Shown here: positions 19,326 through 20,280 of the stretch, piece by piece
How the letters are laid out: every line of letters begins with the position of its first letter
How positions within the stretch are numbered: the stretch's first letter is position 1
IMG/VR virus record: IMGVR_UViG_2541047690_000002
Origin: a virus
Taxonomy: Duplodnaviria; Heunggongvirae; Uroviricota; Caudoviricetes
DNA length: 43,349 nt
Direction: 5' to 3' (one strand)
Notes under the pieces: model-generated
Told to the model about the DNA's origin: nothing
Database searches by the model: none
Seen by the model: only the letters and a program-made list of their open reading frames with translations
Program-made: the position numbers and the translations under genes

Positions 19326-19822
19326 TGCCTCCATCATTACGAAAAGCCGTTGCTGCTGCTATTGGTGGCGGAGCAATTGCTATAGCATCAGTGTTAATTA
19401 CTGGCCCAAGTGGTAACGATGGTCTGGAAGGTGTCAGCTACATACCATACAAAGATATTGTTGGTGTATGGACTGTATGTCACGGGCATACAGGAAAAGA
19501 CATCATGCTCGGTAAAACGTATACCAAAGCAGAATGCAAAGCCCTCCTGAATAAAGACCTTGCCACGGTCGCCAGACAAATTAACCCGTACATCAAAGTC
19601 GATATACCGGAAACAATGCGCGGCGCTCTTTACTCATTCGTTTACAACGTGGGTGCTGGCAATTTCAGAACATCGACGCTTCTTCGCAAAATAAACCAGG
19701 GCGATATCAAAGGCGCATGTGATCAGCTACGTCGCTGGACATATGCTGGCGGTAAGCAATGGAAAGGTCTCATGACTCGTCGTGAGATTGAGCGTGAAAT
19801 CTGTTTGTGGGGTCAGCAATGA
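19325..19822 (+). CDS. rrrD: SAR endolysin (lysozyme, R21-like)
   Basis: 165 aa; N-terminal Gly/Ala-rich signal-anchor-release segment ([18 protein letters not shown]) followed by lysozyme domain; recalled as near-identical to phage 21 R. Confidence 0.9.
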
Positions 19823-20280
19823 ACAGAGTAACCGCGATTATCTCCGCTCTGGTTATCTGCATCATCGTCGGCCTGTCATGGGCTGTTAATCATTACCGTG
19901 ATAACGCCATTACCTACAAAGCCCAGCGCGACAAAAATGCCAGAGAACTGAAGCTGGCGAACGCGGCAATTACTGACATGCAGATGCGTCAGCGTGATGT
20001 TGCTGCGCTCGATGCAAAATACACGAAGGAGTTAGCTGATGCGAAAGCTGAAAATGATGCTCTGCGTGATGATGTTGCCGCTGGTCGTCGTCGGTTGCAC
20101 ATCAAAGCAGTCTGTCAGTCAGTGCGTGAAGCCACCACCGCCTCCGGCGTGGATAATGCAGCCTCCCCCCGACTGGCAGACACCGCTGAACGGGATTATT
20201 TCACCCTCAGAGAGAGGCTGATCACTATGCAAAAACAACTGGAAGGAACCCAGAAGTATATTAATGAGCAGTGCAGATAG
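19819..20280 (+). CDS. rz: Spanin inner-membrane subunit Rz (i-spanin)
   Basis: ATG at 19819 overlapping the endolysin stop; N-terminal transmembrane segment followed by coiled-coil-like periplasmic domain. Confidence 0.85.
20039..20221 (+). CDS. rz1: Spanin outer-membrane lipoprotein Rz1 (o-spanin), embedded in rz in the +1 frame
   Basis: 60-aa ORF entirely inside rz; lipobox LVVVGC and proline-rich [15 protein letters not shown]. Confidence 0.85.

Follow-up and report, generated by a model that had tools for sequence, protein, structure and literature searches.

The closest described relatives of the lysis genes analysed here belong to phages lambda and 21. Lambda Rz1, an outer-membrane spanin subunit (o-spanin), has been proven both genetically and biochemically, and the insertion and sorting of Rz and Rz1 in their membranes, as well as spanin-mediated membrane fusion, have been described (PMC5295617). 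An o-spanin is recognized by a signal peptide, a lipobox with its lipidated cysteine, the lack of an Asp +2 inner-membrane retention signal and, in the embedded architecture, a reading frame +1 to that of Rz and wholly inside it, with a ribosome-binding site of its own; homotypic disulfides (C99 and C152 of Rz, C29 of Rz1) and a proline-rich region are also required features, while the transmembrane domain (TMD) of lambda Rz can be swapped for an artificial TMD with function kept (PMC5295617). The pathway in which a pinholin with a dual start acts with a signal-anchor-release (SAR) endolysin is likewise established (PMC9636201). Here we describe a lysis cassette of this kind in a 43,349-nucleotide stretch of viral DNA (Caudoviricetes; IMG/VR record IMGVR_UViG_2541047690_000002), hereafter the window. 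With high confidence, it is the standard four-gene (S, R, Rz and Rz1) lysis cassette of a lambdoid prophage with a canonical embedded spanin, and an induced cell should lyse without DNA-filled heads.

An Rz1 gene is embedded in Rz

The two spanin genes and the ribosome-binding site (RBS) of the inner one lie as follows.

19819-20280, plus strand: Rz, 153 amino acids (aa) from an ATG start; predicted inner-membrane spanin subunit (i-spanin) of type II topology, anchored by an N-terminal TMD and reaching into the periplasm with a coiled-coil domain.
20039-20221, plus strand: Rz1, a 60-aa open reading frame (ORF) from an ATG; predicted o-spanin, an outer-membrane lipoprotein precursor, wholly embedded in Rz.
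20027-20031, plus strand: Shine-Dalgarno sequence AGGAG of Rz1, within the Rz reading frame and 7 nt before the Rz1 ATG, as read from the sequence.

The first-pass annotation had placed an rz1 gene, with a lipobox and a proline-rich core, in the +1 frame of rz at 19819-20280, and both the coordinates and the description proved exact. The Rz ATG, which overlaps the stop codon of the preceding gene R (ATGA), is preceded in the ORF listing by an alternative GTG start at 19807. Rz matched Pfam PF03245 above the curated cut-off (E 2.6e-54; profile match over residues 29-153), had its hydrophobic segment inside residues 1-26 with none elsewhere, and carried cysteines at positions 14, 99 and 152. A sequence search of Rz against PDB returned coiled-coil noise only (ATP synthase b subunit).

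Rz1 starts 220 nt from the Rz start, hence in the +1 frame, and its ORF is complete. Phages 434 and 21 carry an RBS annotation at the equivalent of its AGGAG. Its signal region has a basic n-region (MRKLK), hydrophobic residues 3-22 and the lipobox VVGC (residues 17-20, with Cys20), with Thr21 and not Asp at +2. Cysteines stand at positions 9, 20 and 29, and 10 of the 41 residues from Cys20 on are prolines, including PPPPP at residues 32-36. PHROG 3198, ‘Rz-like spanin’, matched the protein at E 3.7e-30, and Pfam PF06085 did so at E 2.9e-20, its score of 72 bits lying well over the cut-off of 27.9.

Compared with the lambda pair, lengths (153 and 60 aa) and +1 embedding at an equal offset are the same, and so are the TMD, Cys99, Cys152, the lipobox Cys20, Cys29 and the five-proline stretch (PMC5295617). 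Rz is identical to lambda Rz at 151 of 153 residues, the two differences (S2N and C18G) both lying in the N-terminal cytoplasmic/TMD part, and Rz1 at 59 of 60, the one change, L2R, falling in the signal peptide. The phage 21 proteins (OL657228) are identical at 60/60 residues for Rz1 and 149/153 for Rz. Every feature of an embedded two-component spanin that a sequence can reveal is thus present in Rz/Rz1; lipidation of Rz1 is predicted, as is a role of the pair in outer-membrane disruption, the last step of lysis.

Conservation was assessed in 80 related viral contigs, which represent 29 distinct Rz DNA alleles. Rz1 was open and retained its lipobox in all 29. Polymorphic sites were depleted in the Rz/Rz1 overlap (4 of 183) relative to the rest of Rz (30 of 279; Fisher p = 4e-4), a pattern that selection in two frames would yield. 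It is this conservation, together with the homology, that is decisive for predicting Rz1 as a gene, and not the length of its ORF.

A phage 21-type pinholin and a SAR endolysin precede the spanin genes

19110-19325, plus strand: S, class II pinholin/antiholin; Met1 would give a 71-aa antiholin and Met4 (19119) a 68-aa holin.
19325-19822, plus strand: R, SAR endolysin, a lysozyme-family muramidase of 165 aa (Pfam PF00959, E 1.3e-45, above the curated cut-off).

A pinholin of the phage 21 type was defined as a protein of about 70 aa with two TMDs, the first weak and able to exit the membrane, and a dual start by which the antiholin gains one more basic residue. The S N-terminus, MKSMDK, provides starts at Met1 and Met4 and places Lys2 in the long form only; its TMD1 is weak (60% Gly/Ala/Ser/Thr over residues 8-27) and is followed by a strongly hydrophobic TMD at residues 35-56. 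S also matched the ‘Bacteriophage P21 holin S’ profile (PF04971) of Pfam above its curated cut-off, at E 2e-35, and differs from phage 21 S at 10 of 71 residues (61/71 identical, 86%), while being identical over 71/71 to S of phage 434B and of the phage isolate Turner (PP925837). We therefore identify S as a pinholin of this type.

The R start overlaps the S stop codon (TAATG). The predicted product has a hydrophobic, Gly/Ala-rich N-terminal SAR segment (residues 7-28; 65% Gly/Ala/Ser/Thr over residues 8-27) and the catalytic residues E35, D44 and T50, and is identical over 165/165 residues to phage 21 R and to PDB 3hde_A, as expected for a SAR endolysin of the R21 type. Gene order, overlaps and the MKSM dual start are likewise those of the phage 21 cassette. 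A forced global alignment of the holin and endolysin with those of lambda gave about 21% identity, meaning that they are unrelated.

Turner and the window share every base between 18815 and 20191, so S and R are without frameshift. The single difference from Turner in Rz/Rz1, at 20192, is one at which Turner departs from the lambda/21 consensus (Rz 152/153 identical). Nothing contradicted the identification of the cassette genes, and the pinholin, the SAR endolysin and the integrity of the cassette, all of which had been proposed from the sequence at first reading, were borne out.

The portal gene is split by an IS66-family element

24196-24784, plus strand: 5' fragment of a lambda-type portal gene, matching Pfam PF05136 over profile positions 2-160 and, with its residues 1-196, the Turner portal at 99%.
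24785-27483, plus strand: apparently complete IS66-family insertion sequence (IS) of 2,699 bp, with tnpA (24838-25515), tnpB (25515-25862) and tnpC (25882-27453), all open (Pfam PF01527, PF05717 and PF03050).
27484-28504, plus strand: 3' fragment of the same portal gene, matching Pfam PF05136 over profile positions 184-354.

The disruption of the portal gene, also noted in the first-pass annotation, is due to this element, which splits the gene at codon 196, a site that is empty in Turner. The IS is flanked by an exact 8-bp target duplication, GATTAATG (24777-24784 and 27484-27491), and has imperfect terminal inverted repeats, GTAA(C/G)CG.... As encoded, the 5' fragment product is 201 aa long, its last residues coming from the IS. 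In silico excision of the IS with one copy of the duplication restored a 533-aa portal ORF, identical to Turner at 529 of 533 residues; the insertion is clean and probably recent, since the portal halves show no further decay.

Every late gene in the window other than the portal gene has the full length of its Turner counterpart, and the IS66 insertion in the portal gene is the only lesion visible within the window. The portal/IS66 junction had no exact match in species-representative genomes and one partial, non-equivalent match only among complete Escherichia coli genomes. As read from its sequence, the prophage fits the defective (portal-less) lambdoid type, with an essential morphogenesis gene inactivated and regulatory and lysis genes intact.

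The Q-to-S region is colinear with that of a phage isolate

The prophage is lambdoid and integrated beside tRNA-Thr(CGT) and a 417-aa aldehyde-dehydrogenase-family gene, which is presumably proA, given its size and its place next to tRNA-Thr. It runs from the integrase through a RecT/exonuclease pair, an S24-type repressor, a Cro-like gene, and O- and P-like replication genes to RusA, Q, an antisense porin gene, the lysis cassette, bor, terminase Nu1/A, and the head and tail genes to J. Turner is colinear with the prophage at 95-98% identity outside two regions, one being the immunity region and the other a cargo slot that separates the P-like gene from the nin region. Q and the porin gene lie as follows.

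16850-17233, plus strand: Q-type late antiterminator of 127 aa, starting with the ATG at 16850 (Pfam PF06530, E 9.7e-54).
17423-18520, minus strand: intact Gram-negative porin gene of the Lc/NmpC/OmpD type, 365 aa, antisense between Q and S.

Q is needed for transcription of the lysis cassette. It matched Turner over 127/127 aa (tblastn), with zero DNA differences across 16814-17275. To reach S, late transcription must cross the antisense porin gene; the porin protein is identical to that of Turner. The interval from Q to the porin gene (17234-17422), where the late promoter pR' would be expected, differs from Turner by only four substitutions (17276, 17277, 17343 and 17390), and we counted 1 mismatch in 581 nt against phage 434B. 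It contains four GC-rich hairpins, of which that at 17267-17284 is followed by a T-run on the minus strand only and so looks like a candidate terminator of the porin transcript. Judged by eye, three of the four substitutions appear to fall in hairpin loops. The repressor retains an intact S24 autocleavage domain with its Ala-Gly site and GDSM motif.

Predicted course of lysis

From the characterized proteins of phages 21 and lambda, which those in the window match at 86-100%, we infer the following pathway, as well as expression on induction and the lysis phenotype. Q would antiterminate late transcription running from just downstream of its own gene. S would then build up in the inner membrane in two forms, S68 holin and S71 antiholin, while R, exported by Sec, would be tethered there in inactive form by its SAR segment. 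Rz is expected to insert into the inner membrane as a type II protein and Rz1 to be lipidated at Cys20 and then sorted to the outer membrane; binding through their periplasmic ends, the two would bridge the periplasm as disulfide-linked homodimers. Pinholin triggering should depolarize the membrane and collapse the proton motive force, upon which R would be released, refold into its active form and degrade the murein, and the freed spanin complexes could fuse the inner and outer membranes. With its portal gene cut by IS66, the induced cell should lyse, with no DNA-filled heads made from this prophage alone.

In lambda, lysis is independent of head assembly. Within the late operon, the IS66 element comes after the lysis genes and hence cannot be polar on them; given both points, it is reasonable to expect, as had been suggested at first reading, that induction would lyse the cell without releasing phage. 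SOS-inducing treatments could then still kill and lyse the host of a head-defective prophage with an intact lysis cassette, a point that matters for any DNA, vesicles or endotoxin set free and for how the prophage recombines with incoming lambdoid phages.

Several points weigh against this reading. The promoter pR', with its Q-binding and pause elements, was not located: a consensus scan between Q and the porin gene gave no convincing plus-strand promoter. A search of the same interval for the terminator tR' found hairpins only, and no promoter is marked for the Q-porin-lysis module in the phage 434B record. No lambda-N-like antiterminator was recognized, the early-left region being the same in Turner. 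The immunity region differs from that of every phage compared, so that inducibility is extrapolated, and the right end of the prophage, with attR, lies beyond the window. Moreover, a co-resident prophage could supply a portal or recombine, so the release of no phage at all is not guaranteed; a 3-kb query spanning the cassette matched 5,354 of 5,426 complete E. coli genomes, with a median of 3 matches per genome.

Alternative explanations

Some of these points would also be explained if the cassette were intact but silent, an undecayed remnant in a prophage that is non-inducible or whose late transcription is blocked by an unseen defect. That the prophage is already defective through the IS in its portal gene fits this explanation, as do the pR' scan, the unfamiliar immunity region and the right end outside the window. 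We nevertheless consider it unlikely: Q, the Q-to-S interval and the late genes other than the portal gene are full length and colinear with a phage isolate, the few substitutions at the expected pR' site leave that region almost as it stands in Turner and 434B, the autocleavage motifs of the repressor are kept, and the halves of the portal gene show no secondary decay.

It could also be proposed that the lysis module is retained for the benefit of the host, its expression at a low level or in a subpopulation promoting the release of vesicles, extracellular DNA or protein. The essD/rrrD/rzpD gene set is annotated in thousands of E. coli genomes, as the matches to the 3-kb query illustrate, and in two reports the homologous DLP12 module of E. 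coli K-12 (essD-ybcS-rzpD/rzoD) is linked to outer-membrane vesicle production and biofilm (PMC7918800, PMC2408971). We saw no sign of domestication in the window, however; the cassette is identical to those of phage isolates, the prophage looks functional apart from one IS, and recent inactivation fits better than long-term selection as a host module, which together make this proposal improbable. The more specific idea that the host keeps the IS-inactivated prophage as a lysis device under its own control, in which SOS- or stress-induced lysis of a subpopulation by pinholin, SAR endolysin and spanin would free vesicles, DNA or cytoplasmic cargo for kin and no phage, is argued by analogy and strikes us as a long shot. 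If true, it would parallel the DLP12 reports and lysis-cassette-dependent toxin release in other Enterobacterales.

That the 60-codon ORF in Rz is a chance alternative-frame ORF and no gene can practically be dismissed: its length is unremarkable, and RefSeq annotation by the Prokaryotic Genome Annotation Pipeline (PGAP) of a 99% identical cassette (E. coli CUPS03, NZ_CP180690.1, locus 1820-2281) lists essD, rrrD and rzpD and omits the embedded Rz1 (rzoD), but the profile scores, the full identity to the phage 21 o-spanin and near-identity to the proven lambda Rz1, the RBS, lipobox and Cys29, and the conservation across alleles with reduced polymorphism in the overlap all speak for a gene. The length had been compared with two null models, synonymous recodings of Rz (protein fixed, codons resampled) and codon-order shuffles of Rz. 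A +1 ORF of at least 60 aa from an ATG arose in 49% of recodings and 16% of shuffles, and we rejected ORF length as evidence for Rz1, since both models often give long +1 ORFs; an ORF of at least 40 aa with a lipobox arose in 3.5% and 0.7%, respectively. Embedded Rz1 genes are often missed by annotation pipelines, a recurrent gap for embedded spanins.

Other genes and cargo in the window

Two low-GC pairs of cargo genes are of more interest than the spanin finding. The first lies directly downstream of the repressor, in the slot of lambda rexA-rexB, and has a GC content of 32% against 50% for the window.

7048-8073, minus strand: 341-aa soluble protein in the rex slot, downstream of the repressor.
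6618-7067, minus strand: 149-aa protein in the rex slot with about four hydrophobic segments.

Neither protein had a match in Pfam, PADLOC or PHROGs, and BLASTP against lambda RexA and RexB found nothing; fold comparison alone links them to RexA and RexB. The two-gene arrangement recurs in a Pasteurella chromosome and in a Klebsiella mobile element. The two are probably a very divergent Rex-like exclusion pair.

The second pair occupies the cargo slot that precedes the nin region, which slot in Turner holds ren, qacE and other genes.

11848-14837, minus strand: AAA_15/AAA_21 ATPase and partner (13050-14837, 595 aa; 11848-13053, 401 aa), GC 29%.

It matched A and B of the PADLOC candidate defence system PDC-M62 (E 4e-44 and 1e-33), which is Septu-like, and more weakly PtuA/PtuB (Septu).

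Two candidate lesions relative to Turner were considered and rejected. A supposed frameshift in a small early-left ORF concerned an intact Kil homologue: the corresponding Turner region (1606-1887) differs from the window by a 1-bp indel, and the 93-aa ORF annotated there changes frame. A stop codon in an ‘xis-like’ ORF was discarded, as the true excisionase frame stays open here. The Turner ORF annotated next to int (5010-5180) appears to be in the wrong frame, the excisionase-like frame being another one. The remaining features are as follows.

5939-6229, minus strand: Kil-like ORF, open (phrog_294, E 1.4e-37).
20971-21435, minus strand: two small conserved genes, function unassigned, between bor and the terminase genes (YlcI/YnfO family, phrog_949, and phrog_9395).

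The last two genes run opposite to the late operon, and are also found in Turner, 434 and E. coli prophages.

Comparison with known lysis modules

The layout of the locus, with Q, an antisense Lc/NmpC-type porin gene, S, R, Rz/Rz1 and bor, is that of phage Turner and of the DLP12/PA-2/434B-type module, whose genes E. coli annotation names essD, rrrD and rzpD/rzoD. Against Turner, DNA identity over 16800-21600 is 98.5%, with S, R and most of Rz identical. The 434B record differs in that its porin gene carries an IS5; here the porin gene is intact and the defect is the IS66 in the portal gene. Phage 21 shares the cassette but not its surroundings, as its Q-S interval holds tRNA genes in place of the antisense porin gene, and the Q found here (PF06530) is of another type.

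The gene that follows the cassette is also shared.

20312-20605, minus strand: bor/iss-type lipoprotein gene (Pfam PF06291, E 6.4e-31), convergent with the lysis cassette as its usual neighbour, but without a part in lysis.

A bor gene follows on the opposite strand in lambda as well, and the curated records of phages 434 and 21 show the same order of antiholin, holin, SAR endolysin, i-spanin, o-spanin and convergent bor/iss-type gene. Among the 80 related viral contigs, the bor/iss-type gene adjoins Rz in 77, and S21-type S, R21-type R, Rz/Rz1 and bor co-occur in 70. The lysis cassette with its embedded Rz1 is therefore of a very common and already known kind, real but ordinary, and implies no new biology.
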